From positions 1-58,342 of IMG/VR virus record IMGVR_UViG_3300020021_000012: a stretch of DNA of 58,342 bases; one strand, 5' to 3'. Shown one piece after another: positions 2,912 through 56,926 of this stretch; positions within the stretch are counted from its first letter, which is position 1; each line of letters starts with the position of its first letter. The notes under the pieces were generated by a model. The model saw only the letters and a list, made by a program, of their open reading frames with translations. It was not told the origin of the DNA and made no database searches. Position numbers and translations under genes: made by a program. The DNA comes from a virus. Its lineage: Duplodnaviria; Caudoviricetes.

Positions 2912-2955
2912 TCTCGCCTCCTGTTGCCGCCTGCTACTGTCTATCGCCAACTCGA

Positions 2956-3144: not shown

Positions 3145-3234
3145 ACTGACCTCTCCTGCGTCTTCCTGCCGTCTCTCGCCAACTCGACCGCCCGCAAATC
3201 CTTTACAAATCAATGGCCCGCGTGTGATGCATAA

Positions 3235-3507
3235 TCAGCGGGGCGCGCGTTGGCGCATGAGCTTGAGGAAGTATTCCGCCAGGCCGATCTCCGAATAGTT
3301 CCGGATCGTTGTCCATGGCATGTCGACAGAAATAAGCCTGTCGTCCATCGCGATGGCAAATTTGATGTCCTCGCGGCCACGCGCAGCGACGATCTTGCCG
3401 CCTGGATCGTAGGCAATTTGTTCACCGCGGTCGGCAGCTTTAAGGGACTGCGCAATTCGGCAAGCCTGAGCCTTGAGTTCTCGAAGGGGAGAGGTTTTTG
3501 GCGTCAT
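3235..3507 (-). CDS. Hypothetical phage protein
   Basis: 90 aa, ATGA-coupled to upstream gene. Confidence 0.65.
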   Translation of the reverse strand: MTPKTSPLRELKAQACRIAQSLKAADRGEQIAYDPGGKIVAARGREDIKFAIAMDDRLISVDMPWTTIRNYSEIGLAEYFLKLMRQRAPR

Positions 3508-5201: not shown

Positions 5202-6194
5202 TCAAACCTCCGCCGCTGCCTTCTGGTGATCCGGGTGGTGGTGGGAATAGGTCCGCGTTATGGTCTCCACCGTCATCCCCAAATGCCCCGCCGCTTCCCA
5301 GATCGGCACCCCGGCCTGCATCAGCCATGTTGCACGGGTGTGTCTGAGCGTATGCGGCGTGACCTTGCTCAGCCCCGCGCGCTTGACGGCCGCCGGGAAG
5401 GATGTCTTGAGCATCGCCACCCTGACCCCATCGTAGTGGCACAAGTATTTGACCTCCGGGGAATCGAGCCGGCGCCAGCGTCGCAGGTGCGATAGAATGC
5501 GCTTGCCTAATCGGACAGGCGGGGTACGCTTGCGCGCATCCTCGGCCTCGCCAGAGGCCCGGCGCCGCATCACTCCCCGCTCCAGATCGATTTGGTTCCA
5601 TGTCAGGCTCAGGATGACCGTGGGTCTACTGCCGGTGTAGAGCCCGAGTAGTATGAAGCGCGCCAGATGCGGTATTCTTCGTCCCGCGTTAAGGAGGGCT
5701 GCAGCTTCTGCTCTGGTAAGCCATCGGTCGCGGGCTTCTCGTTTGCCGGGGAGCACGATACTTGGTATCGCCGCCAAAGGACTCTTTTCTCGATGCCAGT
5801 ATCGGATGGCGGCTCGGAGGATTTCCAGATCACGGCGTGTTCCGGAACCTTCCCGGCTTCGAGCATATTCGCGACATGATCCGGGAGTGATATCGGATAA
5901 TCGAAGGCCACCGAACCATCGTCCCAGAACACCGAGATTGTATAAATTGTTCCGCGCGGTTTTGGTGTGCGGAACATGCTCTGTAGCGTAGACAGAAAGG
6001 ACATCTGAAATCAGCGGCGAGGGGCCGCGCTCCGGTGTGTGTTTTTGTTCGAGGTAGCTTTCAAGTTGCTTTGCAGCGTTTGCAACGTCCGCTTCAAGGC
6101 ACCCTGTGCGGACGAAGCTCGCTCCGTCGCGGATAACCCACGCGCCTCGCGCTTTGTCGAGATAAAGCCTCGGCGGCGATCTGCGACGCGGCAT
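5202..6194 (-). CDS. int: Tyrosine integrase
   Basis: Catalytic R (TGSR), K, HTLRH, H (GHLG), Y (TYSH). Confidence 0.95.
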   Translation of the reverse strand: MPRRRSPPRLYLDKARGAWVIRDGASFVRTGCLEADVANAAKQLESYLEQKHTPERGPSPLISDVLSVYATEHVPHTKTARNNLYNLGVLGRWFGGLRLSDITPGSCREYARSREGSGTRRDLEILRAAIRYWHREKSPLAAIPSIVLPGKREARDRWLTRAEAAALLNAGRRIPHLARFILLGLYTGSRPTVILSLTWNQIDLERGVMRRRASGEAEDARKRTPPVRLGKRILSHLRRWRRLDSPEVKYLCHYDGVRVAMLKTSFPAAVKRAGLSKVTPHTLRHTRATWLMQAGVPIWEAAGHLGMTVETITRTYSHHHPDHQKAAAEV

Positions 6195-11373: not shown

Positions 11374-11955
11374 TCAGTCTACGCGTATCCAGGTGATGCG
11401 GGCGGCCCAGGTCACGAGCTGGTCCAGGAGGACCCCGCCGGCCGCTGAATAGAGGTCGAAATGGCCCTTGTCCCGGCCGCGGACGAGCCGTTTGATCAAA
11501 ATGCGGCCATCCAAGAGGCCCAGAACGCAAAGCTTCCCTAGGAGGTCGTCGGTAGGGGGATCGCGGCGGTCGTCATAGTAGACTGTCCAGCCATCTTCGA
11601 GCTGGCCCGTCATGCTGTCCCCGCGGACCACAACGGCCACGGTTTCTTTTCTTGCTCCTCCAGGGGGCATTGGCGCCTCTCCGAAGGGGCCTTGTCCTTC
11701 TTCGTAGAGGACAGCCCCGCCAGCACCGACGTAACCAACGACTGGAATTGTCTCGGAAGCGAAGTTGTCTGAAGGTTGAATAACACCTTTTAGGCGCGCA
11801 TAATCCAAGATCACGTCTTTGTGATCCGATTCCGGGGAGTGGCCCTTTTCCCAGCGTGAAACGGTGGGCTGAGAAACGCGCAGGTCTTGCGCCAGCTCGG
11901 CCTGGTTCTTTCCGGTGACCTTTTTCAGGTCCCGTATGATTCGGGAGACGTTCAT
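11374..11955 (-). CDS. cI: CI-like repressor (XRE HTH plus S24 peptidase)
   Basis: QAELAQDLRVSQPTVSRWE; VGAG cleavage site, GDSM serine and IKRL lysine. Confidence 0.92.
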   Translation of the reverse strand: MNVSRIIRDLKKVTGKNQAELAQDLRVSQPTVSRWEKGHSPESDHKDVILDYARLKGVIQPSDNFASETIPVVGYVGAGGAVLYEEGQGPFGEAPMPPGGARKETVAVVVRGDSMTGQLEDGWTVYYDDRRDPPTDDLLGKLCVLGLLDGRILIKRLVRGRDKGHFDLYSAAGGVLLDQLVTWAARITWIRVD

Positions 11956-11964
11956 AACGGCCCT

Positions 11965-12044
11965 TTCTATGCGATAGCGCATAGAACGAGGCAAATGCAT
12001 CGAAGCATAAATTTCTTGACGACGGCTATTCTTATGCGCATTAT
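11965..12044 (+). promoter_or_regulatory. OR operators and PR promoter
   Basis: Palindrome TTCTATGCG-ATAG-CGCATAGAA (11965-11986), variants at 11994-12009 and 12027-12042; TTGACG-17-CATTAT (12016-12044). Confidence 0.8.
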
Positions 12045-13814: not shown

Positions 13815-14251
13815 TCCGTGCCGCCCTACCAGCCATCGATACCTCAGCGCCACCGTTCGCGCTGCCTCCCGACGTCGTGCTTGACATTCCCGTGCCGCCA
13901 TCTGTGAACCGCACCCGCAGGGTCAATCATGCCCACTCCGGGAAGGTGACGGCCTGGGAAAAGGCCGCGGACGGCCTCCTGATGGCCTCTGGGCAGTATC
14001 GCAGGGCGCGCAAGGTTCCTGGCCGGTTCGAGCTCAAGATCGTCCTGTGCGAGCAGAAATGCCGGCTGGATGCCGATAACCCCGTCAAGCAGGCCGTGGA
14101 TTATCTGCGGCGGCTCGAGCTGATCACCAACGACGACAAGCGGTTCATGCGCAAGCTCACGATCGAGTGGGGCGAGGCGCCAGAAGGCTGCCGGCTGATC
14201 CTGCGGGAGATCGGACCAGCGCGGGTTGGTGCTTATGGGGTGGGCCGATGA
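13811..14251 (+). CDS. rusA: RusA-like Holliday junction resolvase
   Basis: PPSVN, DADNPVK...DYL, NDD motifs. Confidence 0.8.
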   Translation: MIRAALPAIDTSAPPFALPPDVVLDIPVPPSVNRTRRVNHAHSGKVTAWEKAADGLLMASGQYRRARKVPGRFELKIVLCEQKCRLDADNPVKQAVDYLRRLELITNDDKRFMRKLTIEWGEAPEGCRLILREIGPARVGAYGVGR

Positions 14252-15042
14252 GCCGCATCGAGCATCTCTCCGATTCCGTGACGCTGCATCTCGGCGATTG
14301 CCGGAAGATATTGCCGACGCTTCCGAAATTCGACGCCTGCGTCACCGATCCGCCCTATGGGATCGACTACGGAAATCAAGGATCGTTCCAGGCATCGCAC
14401 GGTTGGGGGCCTTGGCGCGAGAATGTCGCATGGGACGCGCAGAGGCCGGAACGAGCGATCTTCGATGCAATGCTCGCTTGCAGCAAGCATCAAATCATAT
14501 GGGGCGGAAACTACTTCACGGACTATCTGCCGCCGACGATGCAATGGTTCATCTGGGACAAAGGCCAGCGCAATTTCTCTCTAGCGGATTTCGAGATCGC
14601 TTGGTCCTCGCAGGAGGCCGCATCTCGCATCGTGGCAATTCCGCGTGCGGTAGCGCGGCTTGATGGCAAAGAGCATCCGACCCAAAAACCGATTGATCTG
14701 ATGTGCTGGTGCATCGAGAAGCTACCACCCCCTGCCCATAGAATTGTTGATCCCTTCATGGGCAGCGGAACGACGGGAATCGCAGCCGTGAAGCTGGGCC
14801 GTCGCTTCACTGGCATCGAAATTCACGAGCCATATTTCGACATCGCCTGCCGGCGCATCACCGATCAGTTGTCGCGGCCGATGCTGGCGCTAGAACAGCC
14901 TCCCCAGGCCAAGCAGGAGGCTTTCCAGTACGACGCGGAAAAGGACTTCGCCGGAAGCCTGGAGGAGGGATACCGCACCATCAGGGAGCGCGTGGCGGCC
15001 GGTGGCGAGCCTTGGGTTCCGAAAATTCCGGGGCAGATTTGA
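14248..15042 (+). CDS. DNA N6-A/N4-C methyltransferase (beta class)
   Basis: TDPPY, HPTQKP, DPFMGSGTT. Confidence 0.92.
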   Translation: MSRIEHLSDSVTLHLGDCRKILPTLPKFDACVTDPPYGIDYGNQGSFQASHGWGPWRENVAWDAQRPERAIFDAMLACSKHQIIWGGNYFTDYLPPTMQWFIWDKGQRNFSLADFEIAWSSQEAASRIVAIPRAVARLDGKEHPTQKPIDLMCWCIEKLPPPAHRIVDPFMGSGTTGIAAVKLGRRFTGIEIHEPYFDIACRRITDQLSRPMLALEQPPQAKQEAFQYDAEKDFAGSLEEGYRTIRERVAAGGEPWVPKIPGQI

Positions 15043-18118: not shown

Positions 18119-18307
18119 ATGCCAACCACCAACCACTACCGCGAAACCGAGCATCACCGGTATGCCCGCCGCCGGGCGCACCGTCAGAGGTTCGCCAACG
18201 AGTGTACGCCCAACGCCTGCCAGGACCGCACCGATTGGTTTGACGACGCCCAGGGTAACCCGACGCGTCTGGTGGGGGATTTGGCGCGGGAGGGAGCGGA
18301 GGCATGA
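18119..18307 (+). CDS. Hypothetical protein
   Basis: 62 aa, ATGA-coupled to the MTase. Confidence 0.5.
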   Translation: MPTTNHYRETEHHRYARRRAHRQRFANECTPNACQDRTDWFDDAQGNPTRLVGDLAREGAEA

Positions 18308-19044
18308 GCCGGATTGAGACGATAGGCGATGCTACCCTGTATTTGGGTGATTGTCGGGAAATTCTGCCTACATTGGGCAAGGTCGATGCGGTCGTAACAG
18401 ACCCGCCGTATGGGATTGGTTTCAAGTACGAAAGCCACATAGACGACGCCGAGTCCTATCCGTCGTTCCTTTGGCCAATTATTGAGGAGGCTGAGCGGCA
18501 CGTCGTACCAGGTGGGCCGATCTTTGTTTGGCAGGCCCAGGAATGGATGCCCCGATTTGCGGAACTATTTCCGCGCAAATGGCGCATCATGATAGCGGCT
18601 AAAAACTTCGTACAAATGCGCGCCGTTGCGATGCAGCACGCGTATGAGCCCGTGGTCGTTTGGTGGACACCTGGCGCAAAACCTTGGCGATCGTTGTCAG
18701 GCACCACATATGCGAATCGCGATTGGTTTGTGGCCGATAGCGCTTCTGCCGTGTCGGATATTCATAGGTTGGCGAAGCAACATCCGTGCCCACGCCAAGA
18801 CGATGTATGTGAATTCATTGTGGCGAATTGGGTTTCTGACGGCGGCGTCATCCTCGATCCGTTCATGGGCAGTGGGACGACCGGCGTTGCTGCTGTGAAA
18901 CTCGGCCGTCGTTTTATTGGAATTGAAATTGAGCCGAAGTATTTCGATCTTGCTTGCCGGCGCATTCAGGCGGCCGTGGACGCTCCAGATATGTTCGCCA
19001 CACGCTTCGCGCCAGCAAAGCAACTCACACTGGACGCCATGTGA
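18304..19044 (+). CDS. Second DNA N6-A/N4-C methyltransferase (beta class)
   Basis: TDPPY, HPCPR, DPFMGSGTT. Confidence 0.9.
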   Translation: MSRIETIGDATLYLGDCREILPTLGKVDAVVTDPPYGIGFKYESHIDDAESYPSFLWPIIEEAERHVVPGGPIFVWQAQEWMPRFAELFPRKWRIMIAAKNFVQMRAVAMQHAYEPVVVWWTPGAKPWRSLSGTTYANRDWFVADSASAVSDIHRLAKQHPCPRQDDVCEFIVANWVSDGGVILDPFMGSGTTGVAAVKLGRRFIGIEIEPKYFDLACRRIQAAVDAPDMFATRFAPAKQLTLDAM

Positions 19045-20707: not shown

Positions 20708-21031
20708 ATGCCTTTCAAGAAGGGCCAATCCGGCAATCCGGGTGGCAAATCCAAAGAACTGAAGGAAATTCAAGCGGCTGCGCGCGAGCATGCGCCGGCC
20801 GCATTGCGCACGCTGGCTCGGATCGCGACCAAGGGCAAAACCGAGGCCGCGCAGGTCCGAGCTGCCGAGGCGTTGCTCGATCGCGGGTTCGGTCGGCCAG
20901 CACAGGCCCACACTGGCGAAGACGGGGGGCCAATCCGATTCCTGCTCGAGGGAATGACCGACGATGAGCTTGCCCGTATCGCCGCAGGAGGCCGCTCGGG
21001 CGCTTCTGCAGCGCCGGACGGTTCGTCGTAG
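20708..21031 (+). CDS. terS: Terminase small subunit (DUF5681-like)
   Basis: FKKGQSGNPGG and LLDRGFGRP; overlaps terL. Confidence 0.85.
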   Translation: MPFKKGQSGNPGGKSKELKEIQAAAREHAPAALRTLARIATKGKTEAAQVRAAEALLDRGFGRPAQAHTGEDGGPIRFLLEGMTDDELARIAAGGRSGASAAPDGSS

Positions 21032-22436
21032 CCTGGCTGAATGGGGTCGGTTCAAGGGCTTTGAGCCCGCCCCCCATCATCAACTGATCTGCGACGAGAT
21101 CGAGGACTTCCTAGCCAGCGACGACGAGGTGCTGCTGCTGTTTGCGCCTCCGGGTTCCGCGAAGAGCACGTGGGTCTCGGTTCTGTTCCCGGCGTCCTAC
21201 TTGGCCCGGTTTCCGCAAAACAGCGTCTTGTTCGCAACGCACTCGGTCGAGTTCGCCAAGCGATGGGGCCGAAGGGTCCGCAACGATATCCTGCTTGAGC
21301 ACAGGATGCTTGGTATCAACGTCGCGCCGGACAACCAGGCGGCCGATCGCTGGGCCCTCACGACCGGTGGCGAATATTACGCGGTTGGCGCCGGAACCGG
21401 CATCGCGGGCTTTCGTGCTGACCTCGGGCTCGGGGATGACTTCTTCGGCAGCCGCGAGGATGCATTCAGCGAGATTGTCCGCCAAAGGCGATGGGACTGG
21501 TACGTCGACGACTTCAGCGCCCGTCTGAAGCCTGGCGCCAAGCGTATCCTCATGAACACTCGCTGGCACGAGGAGGACGTGGCTGGTCGAATCCTCCAGC
21601 AGATCGACAAGGGCATCATTCGCGGGCGGGTGATATCGATCCCAGCGATTGCTGAGGCTGGCGATCCGCTCGGCCGCAAGGTCGGCGAATATCTCTGGGA
21701 TGAGCCGAAAGGCTACAATTACGGGGAGTTCCTACGGGCTCGCCAGCGCGAAACCTCGCCGATGATGTGGTCCGCGCTGTATCAGCAGCGGCCGGCTCCC
21801 GAGGAAGGCGATTTCTTCAAAGCCGACTGGCTCAAGCCCTACGACAAGGCGCCTGCGCTCGAAACGCTCACGACCTACGGCGGCTCGGATTACGCCGTTA
21901 CCGCGGATGGTGGCGATTACACGGTTCACGGCGTTGTCGGGATCGACCCCGAAAACCGCATGTACCTGCTCGATCTATGGCGCCAGCAGGCCTCGTCCGA
22001 GAAGTGGATCGATGCGTTCTGCGATCTGGTCATCAAGTGGAAACCGCTGGGCTGGGCCGAAGAGCAGGGACAAATCAAGGCCAGCTTGGGGCCGTTTATC
22101 AACAACCAGCAGCATGAGCGCAAGGCCTACGTGGCCCGAACGACGTTCCCCACACGAGGCGACAAGGCCGTGCGGGCTCAATCGATCCGTGGCCGCATGG
22201 CGATCGAGGGGCTGTACGTGCCGATCCACGCGCCATGGTATCCCGCGCTGAGGTCGGAACTGCTGAGCTTCCCTGCCGGCAAGCACGACGACCAGGTCGA
22301 CATGCTGGGGTTGATCGGTCAACTGCTCGACATGATGACCGCCGGCCGCGCGCCGAAGAAGCCCGAGCCCGACACGAGTTCCGGCTACCGCTCCGTTGTC
22401 GATCGCGAGCGCGGGCCTTCGCTGGTGACGATTTGA
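20964..22436 (+). CDS. terL: Terminase large subunit
   Basis: PPGSAKS Walker A, GDD Walker B, TRWHEED, YQQRP, FPAGKHDDQVD nuclease motif. Confidence 0.95.
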   Translation: MSLPVSPQEAARALLQRRTVRRSLAEWGRFKGFEPAPHHQLICDEIEDFLASDDEVLLLFAPPGSAKSTWVSVLFPASYLARFPQNSVLFATHSVEFAKRWGRRVRNDILLEHRMLGINVAPDNQAADRWALTTGGEYYAVGAGTGIAGFRADLGLGDDFFGSREDAFSEIVRQRRWDWYVDDFSARLKPGAKRILMNTRWHEEDVAGRILQQIDKGIIRGRVISIPAIAEAGDPLGRKVGEYLWDEPKGYNYGEFLRARQRETSPMMWSALYQQRPAPEEGDFFKADWLKPYDKAPALETLTTYGGSDYAVTADGGDYTVHGVVGIDPENRMYLLDLWRQQASSEKWIDAFCDLVIKWKPLGWAEEQGQIKASLGPFINNQQHERKAYVARTTFPTRGDKAVRAQSIRGRMAIEGLYVPIHAPWYPALRSELLSFPAGKHDDQVDMLGLIGQLLDMMTAGRAPKKPEPDTSSGYRSVVDRERGPSLVTI

Positions 22437-26802: not shown

Positions 26803-28803
26803 ATGCCCCAACCCGTCCTCGCAGCCATGGAAGCCCGGCCCCGCGGCATCTCGCCCGCGGTGTCGGGTCGCGTCCGTGATCCCGAGGATCGGCGATCGCG
26901 CAACGTCGAGGACGATGAGGACGAGAACTACCTCTCTGTCCGCGAACTGCGGAACCAGTTCGAGGATTACCTGACCTCCAAGGTCGACGAGATCGAGGAG
27001 CAGAAGGATTCGCGTCGTTATTACCATGGCTCGCAGTTAACGTCCGACCAACTCCGCGTGTTGCGTGCCCGCCATCAGCCGCCGATGACCTGGAACCGTA
27101 CCGGCCGCAAGATCAACGGCATCGTTGGGTTGGTGCAGCGGATGCGCTCGGACCCGAAGGCTGAGGCGACCAGCCCCAAGAGCGAGCAGGGTGCTGAGAT
27201 CGCCACGCAGTCGGTGCGCTCGGTGCTCTCCGCCAGCGACTGGAAGTCCTTGGAGCCGTGGTGCCTGCTGCAATGCGGCATTGATGGAATTGCCGGGGTG
27301 CAGTCGGTGCTCCAGAAGGATGCCCGCGGCGATTACAAGATCAGGCTCGAATGGGTCATTGGAGACGAGTATTTCTACGACCCGAAGTCCTACCGGCAGG
27401 ATTTCACCGACAGCCGCTACGAGGGCACATCCAAGTGGATGGACGTCGACGAGGCCATAGAGCTTTGGCCCGACGACGAGGAGAAAGAGGAGCAACTCCG
27501 CAGCCTGTTCGCCGGCGACACCGACATGACCACGAACCCGGACCGGGAAATCAAGTGGATCATCACGTCGAGCAAGCGCATCCGGTTGGTGCAGCACTGG
27601 TACAAGAAAAAGGGCAAATGGCGGTGGGCGTTCTACGTCGCCAACACCCTGATCGACCAGGGCACCTCGCCGTTCTTCGATGAGGACGGCAACAGCGCCT
27701 CGTCATTCGATATGTTCGCCGCTGCGGTGGATCATGACGGCGACCGCTACAGCTTCGTACGAAATCTGAAAGGCCCGCAGGACGCCCTGAACCAGGGCAA
27801 GTCCAAGATGCTGCATCTGGCCAATACCAAGCTGGTGCGCTCCGAGAAGGGTGCGGTCGATGATGTCGAGACGGCGCGGCGCGAGGTGGCGCGGCCGGAC
27901 GGCTGGGTCGAAACCAACCCGGGCCGGGTATTCGAGCTCGTCGACACCAAAATGGACCTCGCCGCCTTCACCCAGTTCACCGAGGATGCCAAGGCCGAGC
28001 TCGACGCCTACGCCAACAGCAATCTGGCCTCGCTCAACGGCACCGCGATCACGCAGATTTCCGGGCGGGCGATCGAACTGCTGCGGCAGCCTGGCATGGC
28101 CGAACTTGGCCCGTTTATCCTGGCTCAAAGGGCATGGAAGCTCCGGGTGTTCCGCAAGATTTGGAACGCGGTCAGCCGCTACTGGACCAAGGAGCGGTGG
28201 ATCAGGGTCAACAGCGACGATGCCAAGCTGGCCCAATGGCTGCAGGTCAATGGCCTCGGCCTCGATCAGTACGGCCTGCCGGCGATCATCAACGCGGTCG
28301 GGGCGCTCGACGTCAATATTGTGCTTGAGGAAGGCCGCGACGTCGCCTCCGTGATGGAAGACATCCAGGACCAGTTCAAGGGCTATCCGCCGGGCACCTT
28401 CCCGCCGCAGGTCTTGGTCGAGTTCTCGACCCTGCCGCGGTCGGAGAAGGACAAGTTCATGCAGATGATGGCGCCGAAGCCGCCTCAGCAGGACCCGGCA
28501 GCCGAGCTTATGAAGAAGCTCCAGCTCGAGGGCTTGGCCGGCGAGGTCGCTCACACGGCCGCGAAGACCGCCAAGGACACCGCGTCGGTCCAGCAGATTC
28601 TGGCCACCGCCGAAGAGAAGCGCGCCAAGGCCGCCACCGAGAGCATCAGGCCTGCCCACATGGCGCACGGTGCGGAGATCGATGCCGCAACCTTCGCCCG
28701 AGATACGCTCGCCCAGGCCCATCAGATCGCCACGGCGGGGCAGCAGCAGCCACAGCAAGCCTCACCGCAGAAACCGCCGGCACAGTTCCCGCTGCCGTTC
28801 TGA
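26803..28803 (+). CDS. Portal protein (P22-like)
   Basis: 666 aa; RRYYHGSQ...N, YDP.S..DF.DSRY, NKGKS-like NQGKSK, SGRAI; C-terminal coiled coil. Confidence 0.88.
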   Translation: MPQPVLAAMEARPRGISPAVSGRVRDPEDRRSRNVEDDEDENYLSVRELRNQFEDYLTSKVDEIEEQKDSRRYYHGSQLTSDQLRVLRARHQPPMTWNRTGRKINGIVGLVQRMRSDPKAEATSPKSEQGAEIATQSVRSVLSASDWKSLEPWCLLQCGIDGIAGVQSVLQKDARGDYKIRLEWVIGDEYFYDPKSYRQDFTDSRYEGTSKWMDVDEAIELWPDDEEKEEQLRSLFAGDTDMTTNPDREIKWIITSSKRIRLVQHWYKKKGKWRWAFYVANTLIDQGTSPFFDEDGNSASSFDMFAAAVDHDGDRYSFVRNLKGPQDALNQGKSKMLHLANTKLVRSEKGAVDDVETARREVARPDGWVETNPGRVFELVDTKMDLAAFTQFTEDAKAELDAYANSNLASLNGTAITQISGRAIELLRQPGMAELGPFILAQRAWKLRVFRKIWNAVSRYWTKERWIRVNSDDAKLAQWLQVNGLGLDQYGLPAIINAVGALDVNIVLEEGRDVASVMEDIQDQFKGYPPGTFPPQVLVEFSTLPRSEKDKFMQMMAPKPPQQDPAAELMKKLQLEGLAGEVAHTAAKTAKDTASVQQILATAEEKRAKAATESIRPAHMAHGAEIDAATFARDTLAQAHQIATAGQQQPQQASPQKPPAQFPLPF

Positions 28804-36175: not shown

Positions 36176-37342
36176 ATGGCTCTCTCTACCGTTCAGACCA
36201 ACAACAAACTGGTGCGTTACCGCACCGAAGTCTATCGCGAATACGTGCGCGAAAACCTGTTCTCGCCCTACATGGGGCGGGAGATGAACTCGATCATCCG
36301 CGTTATCACCGACCTAGACAAGGGCGGCAAGATGGGCGGCGAGCAGATCAACGTGCCGTTGCTCGCCCGTGCGAACGCGGTCGGTGTCGGTTCCGGCACT
36401 CTCGTCGGAAACGAAGAGGCGATCGACGACTACGGCGACCGCAAGTGGATCGACTGGACTCGTAACGCCTTCGCGGTCAAGAAGGCCGACGCCAACAAGT
36501 CGTCCTATGACCTCTTCGCCCAGTTCAAGCCGCTGCTGTCGGATTGGGGCAAGGAGCGTCAACGGGACGAAATCTGCGACGCCTTCTATGCGTTGCCGAC
36601 CGACGCTGTCGCCCCAGCTGGTCTTGGTTCGTCCGCCGGCCAGCGCGTCAACGGCATCCTGTTCGATGCCGCGACCGCGACCCAGCGCAACACCTGGATC
36701 AGCGACAACTCCGATCGCGTCCTGATCGGCTCCAGCAACGCCAACCTGGTTGCCGGAAACTTCGCCTCGTCCATGACCAACATCACGTCCGGCATGACGT
36801 TGTCCGGCGCGCTGGTGCTGCGGATGAAGCGGAGCGCGAAGAAGGCTAACCCGCGTATCCGGCCCTACAAGCTGAAGGAAAACGGGACGGAATGGTTCGT
36901 GCTGTTCGTGGGGCAGGAGCAGTTCCGCGACGCCAGCAACGACACCGACATCAAGACCGCGAACCAGAACAGCCGCGCTCGCGAGAATCAGGGTTATCTG
37001 AAGAACCCGATCTTCGTCGATGGCGACCTGCTCTACAACGGCGTGATCATCCGGGAAATCCCGGAACTCTCCACCCGTCTGCCGGTGTTCTACGCCACCG
37101 CTGGTGCCGGCGGAACGGTGCAGGTTGCGCCCGCGTTCCTGTGCGGCCAGTGCGCCCAGGCGTGGTGCTGGGGCCAGATGCCCGAGCCGACCTTCCGCAA
37201 GGAGGACGACTACGGGTTCATCCGTGGCGTCGGTATCGAGATGGCCTACGGCATCGGCAAGATCGCCAAGAAGAGCATCGCCGGGAAGCTCCAGGAATTC
37301 GGTATCTACACCGGATTCTTCGCCGCGGTCGCGGACGCCTAA
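36176..37342 (+). CDS. Major capsid protein (N4-gp56/DUF4043-like)
   Basis: LFSPYMG, LVGNEE, LLSDW, NPIF..GDLLYNGVIIRE, DDYGF..GV. Confidence 0.9.
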   Translation: MALSTVQTNNKLVRYRTEVYREYVRENLFSPYMGREMNSIIRVITDLDKGGKMGGEQINVPLLARANAVGVGSGTLVGNEEAIDDYGDRKWIDWTRNAFAVKKADANKSSYDLFAQFKPLLSDWGKERQRDEICDAFYALPTDAVAPAGLGSSAGQRVNGILFDAATATQRNTWISDNSDRVLIGSSNANLVAGNFASSMTNITSGMTLSGALVLRMKRSAKKANPRIRPYKLKENGTEWFVLFVGQEQFRDASNDTDIKTANQNSRARENQGYLKNPIFVDGDLLYNGVIIREIPELSTRLPVFYATAGAGGTVQVAPAFLCGQCAQAWCWGQMPEPTFRKEDDYGFIRGVGIEMAYGIGKIAKKSIAGKLQEFGIYTGFFAAVADA

Positions 37343-48911: not shown

Positions 48912-50272
48912 TTCTTCGTCGGACGATTGCGTTTGCTATCGCGTTGCTGCTGGCGCCATGCGCCTCGCTGGCGCAATCAACAATTCCATCCGGCCATCTG
49001 CTCGGCAACTCGACCGCGGCGGAACGCACGCCGACTGATACGACCTTGTCAGCGCTGTTCGATCGCGCGTTCGCATGCACGCAAGGACAGATCGTCAATC
49101 GCGGCGCTTCTCTGAATTCCTGCACTGCGGCCCCGATTTTGGGGCTTTCCGGAACGCTAGGATCGCTGAGTTTCGGCAATGCGACGTCCGGTCTGGTGAA
49201 GATTCAGCCGGTTACCGGCGTGCTTGGGTCATCGGTCCTGAGCCTTCCTGCGGCGACCGACACGCTGACGGGCAAGGCCACTACCGACATCTTCACCAAC
49301 AAGACCTATGACACTGCCGGCACCGGCAACTCTTTCAAGATAAACGGCCAGTCGATCACCTCAGTCAGCGGCACCGGTACGCAGGTTGCCATTGTCGGCG
49401 CGCTGACGAATAGCACCGTGCCGCGCTGGCTGGCCGGCGTTCTGTCCAACGGCGCCATCTCGGATGACGGCACCAATATCGCCGTTGCTGGTGCGGCGTC
49501 TGCTACCGCATTTTCGTCTGGCACAAACGGCGTGATTGGCGGAAGCCTGACGCTCAACGGCTCGGCAACGGGCAGCTCTCTCGTTAAGGTGGCCGCTGCC
49601 GCCGGCTCCTCAACCTTTCAGCTTCCCGTAGGGAATGGGTCAAGCGGTCAACTGCTCTCGACCAATGGCTCTGGTGTGACGAGTTGGATCACGGCATCCG
49701 GCACCGGCACTGTCACGAGCGTCGTCTGCGGCAGCGTCACCATCACCAGCACAGGAACCTGCGACAACGGCGTGTTGCTCGATACCGTGACGGCCAGCAG
49801 TTCGGCAAGCATCACTGGGGCGGTCACATTCTCCGGCACCTATAACCGCTATCAGCTCGTATTCTCCGGCATCCTGCCGGCCACCAACGCGGTCGGCTGC
49901 CGGCTGCGCATCAACAGCGGCGGAATTCAGACTACGGGATATCTGGCCGCCATTGTGTTTTCGACCGCCGCAGCCACGCCCGTTGCCAGCGCCCCGACAA
50001 CGTTCATAAATTGTTCGCGCTCCGACACGGCCGATGTTCCGAATACCGGACAGGGCATCTCTGGACAAGTCTGGATTGATGCTCCGTCGGGCACGACGGC
50101 GCCCAAGAACATCGACGTGAAGTTCGTCTATCCGTCGTCGGCAAACTCGATCACGCAGCTATCGGGAGGCGGCTTCTGGAACGGCGGCAACGGTGCCGTG
50201 ACCAATTGGCAGGTCGATTTCACCTCCGGCAATATCGCGAGTGGGACCGTCAGGGTTTACGGCTGGAAGTGA
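48908..50272 (+). CDS. Tail-fibre-like protein carrying a signal peptide
   Basis: MILRRTIAFAIALLLAPCASLA|Q; LP...DTL.G..T.D.FTNKT, LP..NGSSGQLL.TNGSG..SW, GNIASGTVRVYG; 6 mature Cys. Confidence 0.78.
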   Translation: MILRRTIAFAIALLLAPCASLAQSTIPSGHLLGNSTAAERTPTDTTLSALFDRAFACTQGQIVNRGASLNSCTAAPILGLSGTLGSLSFGNATSGLVKIQPVTGVLGSSVLSLPAATDTLTGKATTDIFTNKTYDTAGTGNSFKINGQSITSVSGTGTQVAIVGALTNSTVPRWLAGVLSNGAISDDGTNIAVAGAASATAFSSGTNGVIGGSLTLNGSATGSSLVKVAAAAGSSTFQLPVGNGSSGQLLSTNGSGVTSWITASGTGTVTSVVCGSVTITSTGTCDNGVLLDTVTASSSASITGAVTFSGTYNRYQLVFSGILPATNAVGCRLRINSGGIQTTGYLAAIVFSTAAATPVASAPTTFINCSRSDTADVPNTGQGISGQVWIDAPSGTTAPKNIDVKFVYPSSANSITQLSGGGFWNGGNGAVTNWQVDFTSGNIASGTVRVYGWK

Positions 50273-50484
50273 TGGTGTCGCTCGGCCGCAATGGTGGCCA
50301 AGCTCACCGCGAGCGCGATTAGCAACGCCACCGCGCCAAGCAGTACGCCCTTCCACCCGAATTGAATAATCGCCACGCCGCCTGCAAGTCCCGCCAGATA
50401 GGTGATGGTCGGTTTCATTCCGCAACCTTACCGGACCCAACCTGCGATGTCATCCCCCATTCCACTACCGCGAGGAAACCCAGC

Positions 50485-51558
50485 ATGTGGGCCAATTTCG
50501 ACGGGCGTCCGTATGATCGCGCCAGCTTGGCGGCCCATATTGCCGCGATCGATTTCTCCCATTGGAGGCGCAAGGACGGATCGAAGGGCGTCCCGCTCTA
50601 TCTCGTGTTCCACAATACGTCTGAGCCGACGATCGCGCTTTGGCTGTCGTGGTCTCTGCAGGTTCGCCAGCAATACATCCTCAACGCCGAACACATGTAT
50701 GAGGTCGAAGACGGTTGGCGCGCTGGACCGCATTTCTTTGTTCCACCGACAGTTGATCCCTGCGCCTTCGGGTTCTCTGATCCTGGTACGGCCGGTACGC
50801 ACGCTTCGTGCTTCAACTCGGACTCGATCGGCATCGAGCAAGTCGGCGAGTTCAACGTCGAGGCTTACGACACCGGGCCAGGGGCGATCGTTCAGGACAA
50901 TACGATCTACCTCGCCGCGCTGCTCTATCGGCGCATCGGTATCGCGCCGGACACGAATACGCTGAAATTCCATATCGAGTGCAAGGCCGACGACCATGAC
51001 TGCCCAGGGAAATTCGCCCGGGACAAGGCGGGGCTGATTGCCAAGATCAAGGCGAAGATGGCGGAGCTGGCCGGCGCGGCACCCGTGGCCCCGTCTCCGT
51101 CGCCGGCCGCTGTTATGCAGGCTGCGCAAGCGACCCCCGGGCCGCGCCCCGTGCTGTTTCACGTCCACGGCAAGATGTCCACGTTCGGCGGTCCGCACGA
51201 TACCGGTGTCGGCTCCAGCGAGGGCCTGGCGCTCTACACCAGCGCCCAGCAGCTCGCGGACACTCTTGGCGGCGATTGGGTTCTGACGGCTTCCCAGGCC
51301 GGCGCCTATGGCCTCGCGCGCCGCATCAACCCCGACAAGTCCTATCTGGCCTGCCGGTGGACGGGCCAGTACCCGTTCCTGCGCACCGCGGCCGTGCACG
51401 TCTCAGCCAACGGCAAGAGCGTGGTAGCCCATGCCGTCGACTGGGGCCCGAACGTCAATACCGGCCGCGTGGCCGATCTGTCGCCCGGGCTGGCCAAGGC
51501 GCTCGGGCTCGATACCGACGGCGCGTGCGAGGTCATCGTCTACGCCGATGGCAAATAG
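50485..51558 (+). CDS. Endolysin: N-acetylmuramoyl-L-alanine amidase plus C-terminal DPBB/RlpA-like domain
   Basis: VFHNT, PHFFV, H...FN..SIGIE, H...HDCPG; VDWGP...GRVADLSPG. Confidence 0.82.
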   Translation: MWANFDGRPYDRASLAAHIAAIDFSHWRRKDGSKGVPLYLVFHNTSEPTIALWLSWSLQVRQQYILNAEHMYEVEDGWRAGPHFFVPPTVDPCAFGFSDPGTAGTHASCFNSDSIGIEQVGEFNVEAYDTGPGAIVQDNTIYLAALLYRRIGIAPDTNTLKFHIECKADDHDCPGKFARDKAGLIAKIKAKMAELAGAAPVAPSPSPAAVMQAAQATPGPRPVLFHVHGKMSTFGGPHDTGVGSSEGLALYTSAQQLADTLGGDWVLTASQAGAYGLARRINPDKSYLACRWTGQYPFLRTAAVHVSANGKSVVAHAVDWGPNVNTGRVADLSPGLAKALGLDTDGACEVIVYADGK

Positions 51559-51569
51559 GGGGGGGTGAC

Positions 51570-51884
51570 ATGACCACCGAGCAGATCGAGGCGGCGGTTG
51601 ACGAAGGTATCCGTCAATATTGGGCCGATAACGAGCTTCAATCTCAGGCTTTCGCAGAATGGAAAGCGGCGGGTTTCGCTGGCAAGTGCCGACAACATGC
51701 GGAAGGCAGCTTGGCCGATTATGTCAAGCGGGCCCTCCGTCAGGCGGAAGTTGGGCGCGAGACAGTTGCCGCGTGGATGATGGAGCGCAGCTACGCCACC
51801 GGGCACGGCGATACGATCGAGGATTTACTGGTCGAACTCGAAGGGCATGCGCGCGACCGAGGGGCGAGGGAGCGGAAATCATGA
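51570..51884 (+). CDS. Hypothetical protein
   Basis: YATGHGDTIEDLL motif. Confidence 0.65.
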   Translation: MTTEQIEAAVDEGIRQYWADNELQSQAFAEWKAAGFAGKCRQHAEGSLADYVKRALRQAEVGRETVAAWMMERSYATGHGDTIEDLLVELEGHARDRGARERKS

Positions 51885-52012
51885 TCCGCACGCCGCCGCT
51901 CACCCCGGCCGAATTCGAGGAGGCCAAGGTCAACTTCCTGCGATTCGTGTTCAGGCTGTTCTTCGCCGTGGGCACTGCATCCCTCATCTGGAGCCATTTC
52001 CATGCTGTATGA
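51881..52012 (+). CDS. Small membrane protein
   Basis: 43 aa with C-terminal TM; ATGA-coupled. Confidence 0.5.
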   Translation: MIRTPPLTPAEFEEAKVNFLRFVFRLFFAVGTASLIWSHFHAV

Positions 52013-52280
52013 CGCCAAACGCTGGAGTCGCCCCACGGTCATCTCCGTCGAGGGCCTGATCGACTGGCTGGAGACGCAACCCGCCGCCGGCCGCTATGAC
52101 TGGCCGCGGACCCGCAAATGTCTGCTCGGGCGCTGGTTCCTGTCCATGGGCATGGACGGCCCCACGGCTGACCGCCTGTGCCAAGCGTACAGCCTGACCC
52201 TGCCGTACCTGCACATTGCGCATAGCGAGCCCTGGACGTTCGGGGCGGCTCTGGAGCGGGCCCGGAAATACACCGTATGA
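52002..52280 (+). CDS. Hypothetical protein
   Basis: LIDWLETQP...YDW...CLL...PWTFGAALERAR. Confidence 0.65.
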   Translation: MLYDAKRWSRPTVISVEGLIDWLETQPAAGRYDWPRTRKCLLGRWFLSMGMDGPTADRLCQAYSLTLPYLHIAHSEPWTFGAALERARKYTV

Positions 52281-52408
52281 GGGCTGAGACTTTCCTCGGG
52301 GCGGCTTCGATCGTCTTCGCGGTTTGGCTCGCTTGGCACATTGGCCACGATTACGGACGACGAAACTACGAGCGGCCAGCAGCCATGGGTGACGTCGGAA
52401 AACGCTGA
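52277..52408 (+). CDS. Small membrane protein (43 aa)
   Basis: Manually translated MRAETFLGAASIVFAVWLAWH...; ATGA-coupled. Confidence 0.5.
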   Translation: MRAETFLGAASIVFAVWLAWHIGHDYGRRNYERPAAMGDVGKR

Positions 52409-52414
52409 ATTTAC

Positions 52415-52443
52415 TTGATGTTCATGGTGTGTTCTTGTATAGA
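52415..52443 (+). promoter_or_regulatory. Sigma70-type promoter
   Basis: TTGATG (52415-52420), 17 nt, TATAGA (52438-52443). Confidence 0.65.
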
Positions 52444-52449
52444 AAAAGT

Positions 52450-52860
52450 TGCGCCGGCAGCGATGCGACTCGCCCCGGCGCTGATCGGAACGGACTCGCT
52501 GGAAGCAGTCCCGATCGAGGTGGCCCATATATCACACCTCGATATCCCAGCGCAACCGGCCCGTACACAGTTTGTCGAGTCGCCGCGCGTTATCGGGGTC
52601 GCTGGCCTAACCGCGCGAGGAATGGGCGCTAGGTGAGTACTGTCAAAGCGTCCACGGGTCTGATCGGAGAGCCATTGGCGCAAGCCTCAACGCTCTCTGA
52701 GGGGTGCCCGGACAGTCACACGGGTGTTGTGAACAAGTCCCTCGGTTGGCTGTGCTCCCAAAAAGCAGCCGCCTCCGGCAATGGGCCCTCGTCCGAAAGG
52801 ATAAGAGCTGTCCCGGAATGATCGCCAACCCTGTGAGGGGCCAAGCGATCTTTCCGGACT
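52450..52860 (+). ncRNA. Putative large structured ncRNA upstream of HNH gene (family not recognised)
   Basis: Nested long-range stems and four GNRA-capped hairpins; no convincing ORF; begins at the predicted TSS. Confidence 0.6.
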
Positions 52861-52928
52861 GCAAAACCCTTGAACCGAAGGATAAGAACTCAGGAAGTAA
52901 GAAGGTAGTAAGTAAGAGGGAGAGGGCG

Positions 52929-53564
52929 GTGCTCTGGATCGATCGAATTGAGTTGCTCATTCAGCGGGACGGGCGCCATTGCCACTACTGCAAGCGCCCT
53001 GTTCGCCTTGCGCGTGAGCTATCCGCACACCGCAAGGATGACGCCACGATCGATCATAAAATTCCCACGAGTAAGGGGGGAGCCAACGCCCCCGATAATC
53101 TCTTGCTCGCGTGTCGTGAATGCAATGAGGCAAAGGCTGATCGTGATTACAATGACTTCGTCGCGCGGCCGTATCGCGTAGAACGCGATGGTCGACCCAT
53201 CAGGTCAAAATGGCCGTGCAGTCGGTGGCCGCGTAATCCTCCCGTGCGGGAGGAAAAGCCTATCAAGGGCACGCTAGCTCACGCTATCGCTAAGGGCGAA
53301 GTTGACGAGGTCGGCCGTTATCGGATGGCGCCGATGGACCATAAGCCTAGCAAGGCTCGCCAGTATCGTGAAGACCAAAACGAATTAGACCGAATAGAGA
53401 GAGATTGGCCCTGGCTGGGTAATCTGGTTCGGCCGCGCGTCGAACAGGTCGGCTTTGGACCATGGGCCGCGCCTGCTCCGGCTAAGCGGATGACGGCATT
53501 GGAGACCGCGCGTTACTTGCGTGAGAGCGCGGAAACCAAGGGAAAGCCGTGGCCGCTGGCTTAA
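52929..53564 (+). CDS. HNH endonuclease with basic C-terminal extension
   Basis: RDG..CHYC, TIDHKIP.SKGG.N..NL..AC..CN..K; GTG start after GAGGGAGAGGG. Confidence 0.88.
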   Translation: MLWIDRIELLIQRDGRHCHYCKRPVRLARELSAHRKDDATIDHKIPTSKGGANAPDNLLLACRECNEAKADRDYNDFVARPYRVERDGRPIRSKWPCSRWPRNPPVREEKPIKGTLAHAIAKGEVDEVGRYRMAPMDHKPSKARQYREDQNELDRIERDWPWLGNLVRPRVEQVGFGPWAAPAPAKRMTALETARYLRESAETKGKPWPLA

Positions 53565-53623
53565 CGTCGCCCTGAAACACTCGACCTACCGCCTTTCCAA
53601 TCCTCACCACAGGAGACTTACCC

Positions 53624-53788
53624 ATGGCTGGACCCATGCTCGATAAGCTTATCGCCGAAATCAAGAACGGCTTCTTCAAGGTCAAGCCGGACGACGCAAC
53701 GGCAGCGCTGGAGGAAATCAAGTCGCGGCTCGATGCGCTGGAGGGTGGCGTTGCGCAGTTGAAGACGCCCGGCGTCCAAAAGATATGA
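53624..53788 (+). CDS. Hypothetical protein (54 aa)
   Basis: MAGPMLDKLIAEIK...; AGGAG RBS. Confidence 0.65.
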   Translation: MAGPMLDKLIAEIKNGFFKVKPDDATAALEEIKSRLDALEGGVAQLKTPGVQKI

Positions 53789-53910
53789 CGTGGGGCCGAA
53801 TCCTCTTCTTGTGCTTTGTGGCTGCCGTGCTCGTGGCCCTCACCATCCACATGCACCGCGGACAGGACATCTTCCACGGGAAAGAATCGTCGATCGGCAG
53901 AGAGGGTTGA
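53785..53910 (+). CDS. Small membrane protein (41 aa)
   Basis: MTWGRILFLCFVAAVLVALTIH...; ATGA-coupled. Confidence 0.55.
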   Translation: MTWGRILFLCFVAAVLVALTIHMHRGQDIFHGKESSIGREG

Positions 53911-53911
53911 A

Positions 53912-54397
53912 ATGGACGTGAATCCGCTGAACTGGAACTGGAACGAGAAAAAGGCGGCGGGGCGCCACGTCCTCACCTATGCAGGCGGCCTCGTGACCAT
54001 GGCTGCGGTGTGGGGTCTTGTGTCGCAAGGCGACGCCTCGACGCTCACCCAAGGCCTCAACGACATCGGCGCCGGCCTCGCTCAATTCGCCAAGGGCGTA
54101 GCCGCTATCGCAGGCGTTCTGGTCCCCCTCTACAGCGCTCTGATGGCGAAGAGGAGCGCTCAGCCAGACCAGCAAATCAAGTCCGTGGTTGCCACCCTGT
54201 CTGCACCGAACTCCGGGAAAACCGTCGCCGAAGTCGTGTCCGACGAAAGCGACCGCAAGAAACTGATCAGCGCGGTTGCCGACATGCCCGAGGTCAAGGG
54301 CGTCGTTACGACCGCAAAAGTGGCCGACGAGACCGCCAGCAACAAGGTCGTTGCGACCGCGGCGGAAATCCCGGTGGCCAGATCGGGCGCTAGCTGA
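53912..54397 (+). CDS. Putative holin
   Basis: RHVLTYAGG TM1, second TM, downstream of endolysin. Confidence 0.55.
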   Translation: MDVNPLNWNWNEKKAAGRHVLTYAGGLVTMAAVWGLVSQGDASTLTQGLNDIGAGLAQFAKGVAAIAGVLVPLYSALMAKRSAQPDQQIKSVVATLSAPNSGKTVAEVVSDESDRKKLISAVADMPEVKGVVTTAKVADETASNKVVATAAEIPVARSGAS

Positions 54398-54585
54398 TGA
54401 AACCCCGGCCGCCATGGCGATGCGATAAGCACCACGTCGAGTCCGTCGAGGCCAGCGCCCTCTGGGGGCAGCAGCCGGGGCGGGCTCGCTCTGTCAGGGT
54501 GTGTCCGCGCTGCCATGCGGAGGCGGTCGTAAAGGCTAGGTTGGCCATGAAACAGCGGCGGCAGGGAAGGCGGCTGACGGCATAA
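54397..54585 (+). CDS. Small Zn-finger-like protein
   Basis: CxxH...CPRC; coupled. Confidence 0.5.
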   Translation: MKPRPPWRCDKHHVESVEASALWGQQPGRARSVRVCPRCHAEAVVKARLAMKQRRQGRRLTA

Positions 54586-54685
54586 CTGTTACCAAGCCTG
54601 CACAGAAATTCTATGTTTGTTTCCAGACAAAATAGTTGCTCGTCCCCGGCGTATGCTGACCGCTCACGAAACAGGGGACAAGCTC

Positions 54686-55444
54686 ATGCGTAAATTCTTG
54701 CTCTCTCTCGCCGCGCTTGCGATGGCGGGCCCGGCGTTCGGCGCGGATATCGCTCTGAAGGCCAAGCCGATTGCCTATCCGTATGCCAAATCGGGGTGTT
54801 ACTTCGGAATCAACACCGAGGCGGCGGTCGCCTCCACCGACACCTCCGGAACCGGGCTGTTCATCAATTCGGCGGCCAGCGGCAAGCTCTACGCGGCCGG
54901 TGGCGCGATCGGCGGCTCGGTCGGCTGCATCAAGGGTGGCCCAGACCTCTGGTACGGCGTTCAGGCCGATCTCGATTACCAGAACATCACCGGTAGCGTC
55001 CCGGTCGCCGGGGCAAACATCAACTTCGCCAGCCGGCTCCAGGGTGGTGCGGAGGTCCGCCTCGGGGGAACAACCCTCCTGACGCTCCTGACCCAATGGG
55101 TGCCCTCTGGGAGCTTCCCGGTGGTCGGTACGCCGGCCGTCCCCGGTAGCTTCCAACTGGCCGCAACTCCCCCGCTGCCCTACGTGGCGGCCGGCTTCGA
55201 GGTGTTCCGGGTGGATGCGGCTTTCGGTGCCATCAGCGGCTCCGGAACCGAGATCGCCCCCAAGCTCCGGGCCGGCGTCATCAACCAGCTCACCGACGCC
55301 CAGGGCAAGCTGACGGGCGCCGTGATGGACACCTACGCCAAGGTCGTATTCGCCGGCAAAGGCGTGACGTTCAACGATGGCCAGTTCGCCGCGATGACGA
55401 ACATGGGCAACCAGTATCGGGCCGGCGTCGCCTTCTACTGGTGA
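54686..55444 (+). CDS. Outer-membrane beta-barrel protein (Omp25/RopB-like)
   Basis: Signal MRKFLLSLAALAMAGPAFG|ADI..KA; G.YFGIN; YGVQADLDY; terminal aromatic beta-signal AGVAFYW. Confidence 0.8.
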   Translation: MRKFLLSLAALAMAGPAFGADIALKAKPIAYPYAKSGCYFGINTEAAVASTDTSGTGLFINSAASGKLYAAGGAIGGSVGCIKGGPDLWYGVQADLDYQNITGSVPVAGANINFASRLQGGAEVRLGGTTLLTLLTQWVPSGSFPVVGTPAVPGSFQLAATPPLPYVAAGFEVFRVDAAFGAISGSGTEIAPKLRAGVINQLTDAQGKLTGAVMDTYAKVVFAGKGVTFNDGQFAAMTNMGNQYRAGVAFYW

Positions 55445-56347: not shown

Positions 56348-56926
56348 ATGACCCCGCCAAAAAGCGACGTTGTCGTCACGAATCCCGATCCGACTGTCGC
56401 GGTCAAGGAGGCGCTGGAACTCGCGATCAAGAACCTTGACGACAAGATCGATCGGCGCTTTCAGGGCATCGAGCAGGCAACGGCCCTCGCCAGGGATGAG
56501 CAGAAGGAAAAACTGATCGCCCTCAAGGAGACGCTGCAGAACGCAGCCGCCGAAAAGGCATCATCGAACAAGGACCTCGTCGAGAAGCTCGAGAAAGCCA
56601 ACCAGGTTGCGTTGACGGCTGCCCTGCAGACGCAGAAGGAATCGGCCGCCAAAAGTGAACTTTCCATGGCTGACCTGCTCAAGCAACTGCAGGTAAGCTT
56701 CGAGACGGCGAACAAGGCGACCAACGAGAAGATTGACCGGCTCACGTCCCGGTTGGATACGGGCGAGGGGCGCACTGGAGGCGCCGTCGACAATCGGCAG
56801 ATATCACGGCTGGACTTGCAGGACAGCCGGCAGAGCGCGGACAGTACCCGAAATTTCATCTTGGCGCTGATCGGAACGGTGCTGGTCGCCACCGGGATCA
56901 TCGTTACCGTTTTGCTGAGAAAATGA
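56348..56926 (+). CDS. Coiled-coil protein with C-terminal TM anchor
   Basis: ALTAALQTQKE...KSE; C-terminal hydrophobic helix. Confidence 0.75.
   Translation: MTPPKSDVVVTNPDPTVAVKEALELAIKNLDDKIDRRFQGIEQATALARDEQKEKLIALKETLQNAAAEKASSNKDLVEKLEKANQVALTAALQTQKESAAKSELSMADLLKQLQVSFETANKATNEKIDRLTSRLDTGEGRTGGAVDNRQISRLDLQDSRQSADSTRNFILALIGTVLVATGIIVTVLLRK

Follow-up and report, generated by a model that had tools for sequence, protein, structure and literature searches.

A candidate portable leader cassette upstream of an HNH endonuclease gene in a temperate phage related to Bradyrhizobium and Xanthobacteraceae prophages

The IMG/VR virus record IMGVR_UViG_3300020021_000012, analysed here over its full length of 58,342 bp (the window), carries a 520-nt stretch without credible gene directly upstream of a free-standing HNH endonuclease gene. 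Our analysis suggests that this stretch is a mosaic untranslated leader, and that its last ~150 nt, the conserved core, are a portable cassette working in cis, most likely as RNA, on the gene that lies downstream. In this cassette a hairpin would stabilise or process the message, and a purine-rich region would serve translation initiation. We put the probability of this reading at about 0.45. The cassette and the HNH gene are separable, and the cassette abuts the start codons of unrelated genes. The main elements are:

52409 to 52928, + strand: stretch without credible gene, a mosaic of at least three modules (open reading frame list, family scans, relatives)
52771 to 52922, + strand: conserved core, candidate portable leader cassette, reaching up to the Shine-Dalgarno sequence (identity blocks, covariance model, metagenome contig of run X3)
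52891 to 52928, + strand: purine-rich tract with stop codons in two frames and the Shine-Dalgarno sequence of the HNH gene (retained up to 52922 by the X3 contig, which has its own ATG thereafter)
52929 to 53564, + strand: free-standing HNH endonuclease gene, 211 aa (Pfam PF01844, PHROG HNH families, homologue alignment)

The separability is seen in metagenome contigs from four soil and freshwater runs (three studies) that were aligned to 52300-53700. One of these contigs (X3 record 2) matches the window as far as 52922, a position within the Shine-Dalgarno sequence, beyond which it enters a different open reading frame (ORF) that has its own ATG. In another (X3 record 3), a relative of the HNH gene aligns from 52930 and is preceded by unrelated sequence with its own Shine-Dalgarno sequence; this relative has an A before TG, and thus an ATG, at the position of 52929. 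Since the core occurs with another gene and the HNH relative with another upstream sequence, leader and nuclease gene are separable, and the joint between them falls between the ribosome-binding site and the start codon. Contigs covering the core from 52773 or 52813 to 52906 or 52922 show 6-13 differences from the window and small indels.

A further copy of the core was found by a blastn search of 401 Xanthobacteraceae genomes, which gave three matches, only that in genome G295 being credible; the remaining matches, with E 3.3e-4 and 8.2e-4 per genome, are at chance level, and L098 aligns poorly. The credible match lies on contig 98 of G295, a metagenome-assembled genome (JAIESR010000135.1; L097, L100 and L119 are this same locus, called L100 below). 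Positions 52763-52818 of the window are 86% identical to L100 and 52849-52884 are collinear and 82% identical, with unrelated flanks; a tblastx comparison of the window with the 8-kb L100 locus found nothing else shared. Runs of up to 20 nt match perfectly within the shared blocks, but 1-nt indels break the blocks up, and because of these indels they are not coding. A covariance model (R1) scores 146.7 bits at the core in the window and 168.8 bits in L100. There, the core lies about 30 nt 5' of an ORF of 51 aa that overlaps the beginning of a large serine recombinase gene (domains Resolvase, Recombinase and Zn_ribbon_recom), and a resolvase gene lies further upstream of the core. Taking the three contexts together, the core precedes by ~30-40 nt the start codons of three different genes (the HNH gene, the 51-aa ORF with its serine recombinase, and the ORF of X3 record 2), always in the same orientation relative to the gene. 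These genes, namely an HNH nuclease, a small ORF with a recombinase and an unknown ORF, share no pathway or ligand theme.

The 5' two thirds of the leader, in contrast to the core, are mosaic modules that are not conserved outside near-identical relatives. The features of this part are:

52458 to 52590, + strand: 5' domain, two nested stems around two hairpins (minimum free energy (MFE) -55.8 kcal/mol)
52597 to 52770, + strand: middle module (near-identical in contigs of three metagenome runs, absent from the metagenome-assembled genome locus)

Over the 122 nt of 52367-52488, a relative contig matches the window with 16 differences and 2 gaps, flanked on both sides by other sequence; because the contig diverges at 52488, the 5' domain is not kept as a unit there. 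The middle module is covered by X3 record 1 (52597-52779, 2 differences) and X4 record 5 (52570-52720, 1 difference), and contigs of X3 and X5, both from one study, part from the window at a common point upstream of 52597. The upstream 360 nt of the window's leader are not conserved in L100, where the untranslated stretch (2678-3293, 616 nt) resembles the window only in its last ~145 nt. This L100 stretch has no Rfam match and folds with a z score of -2.76, estimated from only 20 shuffles.

An RNAalifold consensus derived from two rows, the window and L100, gives the core as a three-way junction of P1, P2, P3 and P4. The structural elements and repeats of the core are:

52773-52779 with 52875-52881, + strand: P1, closing helix with one C.A mismatch (RNAalifold)
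52783-52785 with 52867-52869, + strand: P2, closing helix, GGG/CCC (RNAalifold)
52788 to 52807, + strand: P3, short GAAA-capped hairpin with a 2-nt bulge (MFE structure in window and L100, z about -2.0 each)
52810 to 52859, + strand: P4, long imperfect hairpin of 18 bp with invariant base and variable interior (z -4.17)
52786-52809 and 52867-52890, + strand: two direct repeats of ~24 nt, 75% identical (repeat scan of the window)

P4 is the one solid structural feature of the core and is non-random in two divergent copies. On the + strand the window copy has a z score of -4.17 and the L100 copy one of -3.72, and in either case none of 200 shuffles folds as well. The L100 copy has 26 bp and a different interior, and its length differs by 11-15 nt; a bulge and an internal loop are present at both loci. 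Four G.U pairs occur in the L100 hairpin, which reaches -39.2 kcal/mol on the + strand versus -28.0 on the - strand (z -1.85), and the window hairpin has a z score of -4.80 on the - strand. P4 is followed by ACUGCAAAA, with no U-tract. P2 is maintained through sequence changes: by hand comparison, pair 85/67 is G-C in the window and L100 and U.G in a variant lineage represented by X3, X4 and X5 contigs, and pair 82/70 is U.U in the window, U-A in that lineage and A-U in L100. Both direct repeats are kept in L100, and the motif occurs nowhere else in the window. In the variant lineage one and the same T>A change affects each copy (at 52802 and 52883), which hints that one factor may read both repeats, as RNA or as DNA. 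The distance between the repeats is 82 nt in the window versus 92 in L100, a difference of one helical turn. Sequestration of the Shine-Dalgarno sequence by a CCUCC block was also considered and set aside, being inconsistent between the two loci.

These features lead us to a tentative model of how the cassette operates. The stretch would be the untranslated leader of an acquired HNH gene, and the cassette (52771-52922) would be co-transcribed on the + strand with whichever gene comes next and act on it in cis. P4 would then likely serve as an RNA stabiliser or as a double-strand-specific (RNase III-type) processing site, the GAAA hairpin and the two repeated purine motifs could bind a host factor, and the purine-rich tract may bring a strong ribosome-binding site directly to the start codon. 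We infer in particular that the cassette works as RNA, that its + strand is the active one and that it acts through processing or translation of the message. The RNase III sites of phage T7 and the lambda N leader are intercistronic phage hairpins through which mRNA is processed or stabilised and the following gene is translated more strongly. P4 is like them in being long and imperfect (18-26 bp with an internal loop and a bulge), untranslated, placed shortly before a ribosome-binding site and without a U-tract. About two turns of imperfect duplex characterise an RNase III-type hairpin, and P4 has these, which makes it a candidate for cleavage. Unlike the T7 and lambda hairpins, the core adds a GAAA hairpin, two repeats and possible closing helices, and it occurs both in a phage and at a recombinase locus outside phages. 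An intrinsic terminator is a poor comparison, as P4 lacks a U-tract and no + strand site was found in 50000-55000.

Several results weigh against this model. Only three distinct core sequences are available, those of the window, the variant lineage and L100. P1 is invariant in all sequences and P3 between the window and L100, so neither is informative, and in the variant lineage two of the seven P3 pairs are broken (52802 T>A, 52807 G>A). Enforcing P1 and P2 in the window yields a structure 9.2 kcal/mol worse than the MFE. Covariation is non-significant: four pairs are changed on both sides, and 41 of 500 shuffles reach the same score, for a structure that itself comes from the two rows tested. 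The - strand fares as well in places, as the C.A mismatch of P1 becomes U.G there, the - strand MFE gives the same junction architecture in the window and L100, and the window core (52766-52895) folds equally on both strands (z -2.33 on +, -2.37 on -). The parallel T>A change and the repeat spacing would also fit a protein binding to DNA. In addition, scans of 50000-55000 returned no consensus promoter-like site and no + strand terminator-like site, and the metagenome contigs are short (151-415 nt), so their loose ends could partly be assembly breaks.

The HNH gene itself encodes a protein with an HNH motif (PF01844, 49.8 bits against a cut-off of 21.4, residues 18-72) and no other Pfam domain; RuvC was found neither by Pfam nor by NCBIfam. 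Thirty PHROG families match the protein, and the best 25 of the 30 are mostly HNH endonuclease families. The start at GTG 52929, given in an earlier annotation made from the sequence alone (the original prediction), agrees with the two closest full-length homologues (P0002 and P0003), which begin there, and with the metagenome relative; the 248-aa version of the gene caller (ATG 52818) is probably too long. At E<=1e-10 there are 73 representative homologues and at E<=1e-30 three, the phage's own protein included. The ~120-aa tail, which had been described as basic and Arg/Pro-rich, turns out to be a conserved domain: motifs recur over the C-terminal 130 aa in roughly 20 representatives that share length and tail, and the family with this C-terminal domain, to which the protein belongs, is small and uncharacterised. 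The motifs of this region (a WPWL...GFGPW block and a GKPWPLA end, 53300-53564) appear in varied combinations among P0004-P0019, and one metagenome contig shares 53427-53594 with 3 differences and has other flanks. The HNH tail thus looks modular too.

Full-length relatives of the HNH protein are absent from all 16 related phage records, four of which have HNH-domain-only matches (query residues about 10-93) in other places, and from the 401 Xanthobacteraceae genomes at E<=1e-10. No relative was found in IMG/VR viral contigs, and a single HNH-domain match (Calothrix) was found in genome contigs. A metagenome scan gave 8 HNH-domain-only loci, none with anything similar to the leader, and an endolysin-based pattern search gave no match. 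Leader DNA is likewise absent from 26 related phage and prophage records (including 9 virus records that are >=90% complete), where the sole match is 20 nt long and at chance level. Third-codon-position G+C is about 0.57-0.63 in the HNH gene versus 0.82-0.88 in the neighbouring gene 52002-52280, which suggests recent acquisition from a different genome. The ORFs flanking leader and gene (52277-52408 and 53624-53788) are complete and small, with their own starts and stops; they have no family match in Pfam, PHROG or NCBIfam, and each recurs in one of the 16 related records. Because full-length relatives are missing from related phages, the leader DNA is absent and the codon-position G+C is atypical, the HNH gene looks like a horizontally acquired free-standing gene. 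It resembles the free-standing HNH genes, or morons, of other phages in being small, lying between conserved modules in an accessory region, and being sporadic and atypical in composition. Unlike those, no promoter or terminator was found around it by scan, and homing by this gene would be putative.

Among the other readings of the core, the most serious, which we nevertheless regard as unlikely, is that it is a DNA-level element or functionless: a recombination joint or mosaic boundary, or a set of direct-repeat protein-binding sites around an inverted repeat (an operator or recombinase site), with an incidental RNA fold. The stretch is indeed a patchwork with joints at about 52488, 52597, 52771 and 52922-52930, the repeats change in parallel and are spaced about 10 bp differently in the two loci, the window core folds equally on both strands, and recombinases neighbour the core in L100. 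However, the interior of P4 has been swapped for other sequence that still pairs, which argues for selection on a hairpin and not on a binding sequence, and the G.U pairs of the L100 hairpin favour the gene's strand by 11 kcal/mol. Moreover, no serine recombinase related to that of L100 is present in the window, and the repeat motif is found nowhere else in the phage. A more ambitious version of the RNA reading strikes us as rather improbable, namely that the core (~115-150 nt) represents a new structured class of cis-regulatory RNA, in which a three-way junction with conserved junction nucleotides and two repeated purine motifs senses a cellular signal or factor and thereby controls how selfish genes for nucleases and recombinases are translated, both on phages and on genomic islands of soil Alphaproteobacteria; it would move as a plug-in cassette by recombination at the joint between Shine-Dalgarno sequence and start codon. 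Like riboswitches or protein-binding 5' leader RNAs with a three-way junction, the core (~110-125 nt by this comparison) has two hairpins and a closing helix, its junction nucleotides are conserved, and it stands in sense orientation upstream of an ORF; unlike them, it has no shared metabolic theme, no significant covariation and no Rfam family, and its closing helices are thermodynamically unfavoured in the window. Less credible still is a stand-alone non-coding RNA gene acting in trans, be it a phage small RNA or a structured RNA of larger size, that just happens to precede the HNH gene. Such an RNA would be new, as nothing in Rfam matches, and the long untranslated stretches at both loci (520 nt and 616 nt) and their folding scores (-2.16 and, from the 20 shuffles, -2.76) would leave room for it. 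Against this, no flanking promoter or intrinsic terminator emerged from the scans, the conservation reaches into the Shine-Dalgarno sequence of the next gene with the joint between that and the start codon, and the upstream 360 nt are not shared with L100.

There is only a small chance that the active product is a cis-antisense RNA, read from the - strand over the leader and the start of the gene and repressing the downstream nuclease or recombinase gene. On that strand P1 is uninterrupted (7-8 bp, with U.G for C.A), the MFE gives the three-way junction at either locus, and P4 of the window gains slightly in stability; but the L100 hairpin is 11 kcal/mol weaker there (z -1.85), the U.G variant of P2 would turn into A.C, and the scan found no - strand promoter. 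With 5 pairs, the terminator-like site on the - strand at 52781-52769 is weak, and L100 does not keep its T-run. The least probable of these readings, to our minds barely tenable, is the one favoured by the original prediction, in which the RNA and the HNH protein form a ribonucleoprotein, possibly RNA-guided, with the RNA as scaffold or guide (IscB/HEARO-like), or in which the stretch is a self-splicing intron with a homing HNH. As in the HEARO/omega-RNA-IscB systems, a structured non-coding stretch lies directly upstream of an HNH whose domain is closest to IscB and Cas9 models (NF040563, E 2.6e-12; Cas9d, E 2.8e-8). Yet the best NCBIfam match, guided_IscB, reaches 46.5 bits versus a cut-off of 175 and covers only profile positions 185-253 of 314, the PADLOC matches (PtuB, Cas9) are weak and limited to the HNH domain, and the protein has 211 aa versus the about 400-500 aa of a protein with PLMP, split RuvC and HNH. 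The absence of RuvC and of group I elements, already noted in the original prediction, is borne out by Pfam, NCBIfam and Rfam: at E<=10 there is no match to HEARO (RF02033), group I or group II models in 52250-53650, and nothing else relevant; Intron_gpI fails at gathering scores as well. There are no flanking exons, the neighbouring ORFs being separate small genes and not halves of a split gene. The postulated linkage of the RNA-like part to the HNH gene breaks down, an outcome that the original prediction had itself named as refuting: the core occurs without an HNH gene in L100 and in the X3 contig, and an HNH relative occurs without the core. A variable guide-like segment adjoining a conserved scaffold was likewise expected, and the reverse pattern is seen, in which the gene-proximal part is conserved across unrelated genes.

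Returning to the leader as a whole, the gap without credible ORF that had been noticed before the HNH gene is confirmed by the ORF list, family scans and G+C periodicity. It extends over 520 nt from a 43-aa ORF (52277-52408) to the HNH gene. The seven ORFs inside or overlapping it have no PHROG match and a single sub-threshold Pfam match (E 0.062), position-specific G+C in 52409-52928 shows no clear coding periodicity, and a protein search with the leader translations returned only the phage's own protein or none. As a fold, the leader is unremarkable and only modestly better than shuffles: the whole 486 nt give z -2.16 on the + strand, with 3 of 100 shuffles as good, and z -1.64 on the - strand. 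By segment, the + and - strand z scores are -2.69 and -1.07 for 52458-52590 and -1.49 and -0.48 for 52597-52746. What had been described as a ~410-nt structured unit shrinks to its last ~150 nt, the only part that is conserved with hairpin-forming potential; the idea of a new phage non-coding element survives in part, for this conserved portion and not for the larger unit, and the proposed excess of folding over shuffles holds modestly for the whole and strongly only for P4. The complementary segments listed for it do exist (52465-72 with 52576-83; 52475-83 with 52548-59, with a 2-nt bulge; hairpins 52483-52516 and 52517-52540; stem 52813-57). A further stem, 52697-704 with 52738-45, is complementary with two G.U pairs, but the MFE fold pairs 52740-44 with 52616-20 instead. 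Four GNRA tetraloops had been assigned as caps; GCAA 52680 and GAAA 52795 do cap MFE hairpins, while GCAA 52778 caps none and natural variants alter GTGA 52833 (G>T at 52833, T>A at 52834).

The promoter proposed to drive the element also finds no support:

52415 to 52443, + strand: promoter-like site TTGATG-17-TATAGA, weak and unsupported (8 of 12 consensus matches, final T missing)

This site fails the consensus scan, and its -10 hexamer is altered in the relative contig (52440 T>C, deletion at 52442). Rfam gave no match in the whole window at gathering scores, in agreement with the expectation that no described family would be found, and a ribozyme or intron identity was set aside on the same grounds. 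A sub-threshold Actino-ugpB match in the HNH coding region (53439-53508, + strand; 21.7 bits versus a gathering score of 42.5, E 0.32) was taken as chance. An integron attC site, a LexA box and a sigma-54 promoter were checked by eye against the sequence and left unmatched, and a full-text literature listing contained nothing describing the leader motif. The 5' domain holds three GANTC sites within 115 nt (52467-52471, 52493-52497 and 52577-52581), two of them within the outer stem. GANTC is the CcrM-type methylation site, and the phage encodes two DNA methyltransferases (14167-15042 and 18304-19044, phrog_67).

The element is rare in reference collections and present in several soil and freshwater metagenomes. 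Searches of GenBank phages and PLSDB plasmids by blastn with the leader gave no match. Two complementary pattern scans of species genomes and three of IMG/VR viral contigs were run. A two-block exact pattern hit only L100 among 185,579 species genomes and nothing in the viral contigs, in which a 20-mer exact pattern and a further viral exact pattern were also without a hit. The other species-genome pattern, based on the 5' block, matched 19 stretches, and the 18 besides L100 misfit the covariance model (best 11 bits, E 0.16). Model R1 recovers the known copy, a single one in G295, and this genome is the one hit among both 74 genus genomes and 151 order genomes; none of 151 family genomes has a hit. 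The L100 hairpin is not a repeat within G295, and the window holds no second copy of the leader.

The soil phage itself is rated 100% complete, and PHROG and Pfam scans, which also identify helicase and primase genes, reveal the layout of a temperate tailed phage:

5202 to 6194, - strand: tyrosine integrase
11374 to 12000, - strand: repressor
20964 to 22436: large terminase
26803 to 28803: portal
36176 to 37342: major head protein
50362 to 51558: amidase-type endolysin

Its relatives are Bradyrhizobium and Xanthobacteraceae prophages: the capsid protein is 71-79% identical to the capsids of 75 IMG/VR contigs and similarly near to those of prophages in Bradyrhizobium, Pseudolabrys and other Rhizobiales genomes. 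Leader and HNH gene are placed in a variable accessory region that runs from the lysis genes to the integrase. Adjoining the integrase are a queuine tRNA-ribosyltransferase-like gene (3504-4187, - strand) and a PAPS-reductase-like gene (4390-5160, - strand), a pairing that recalls the 7-deazaguanine DNA-modification genes of phages. A 275-aa ORF (54617-55444, + strand) has a signal-peptide-like start and an aromatic C-terminus and by eye resembles an outer-membrane beta-barrel; it has no family match in PHROGs, NCBIfam or PADLOC. The gene at 56348-56926 (+ strand) has a weak PADLOC match to ZorA (its MotA/ExbB-like part, E 3.6e-4), probably a generic membrane-protein resemblance. ARAGORN found no tRNA or tmRNA.

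What our analysis adds is a candidate leader motif, rare and still short of statistical support. It also provides a correction, in that a GNRA-rich fold drawn by eye beside an HNH gene is not evidence for an RNA-guided system. If the core works, a rare RNA motif of soil phages would be added to the catalogue, and if it is a working cassette, expression signals would be swappable as modules between the genes of mobile elements.

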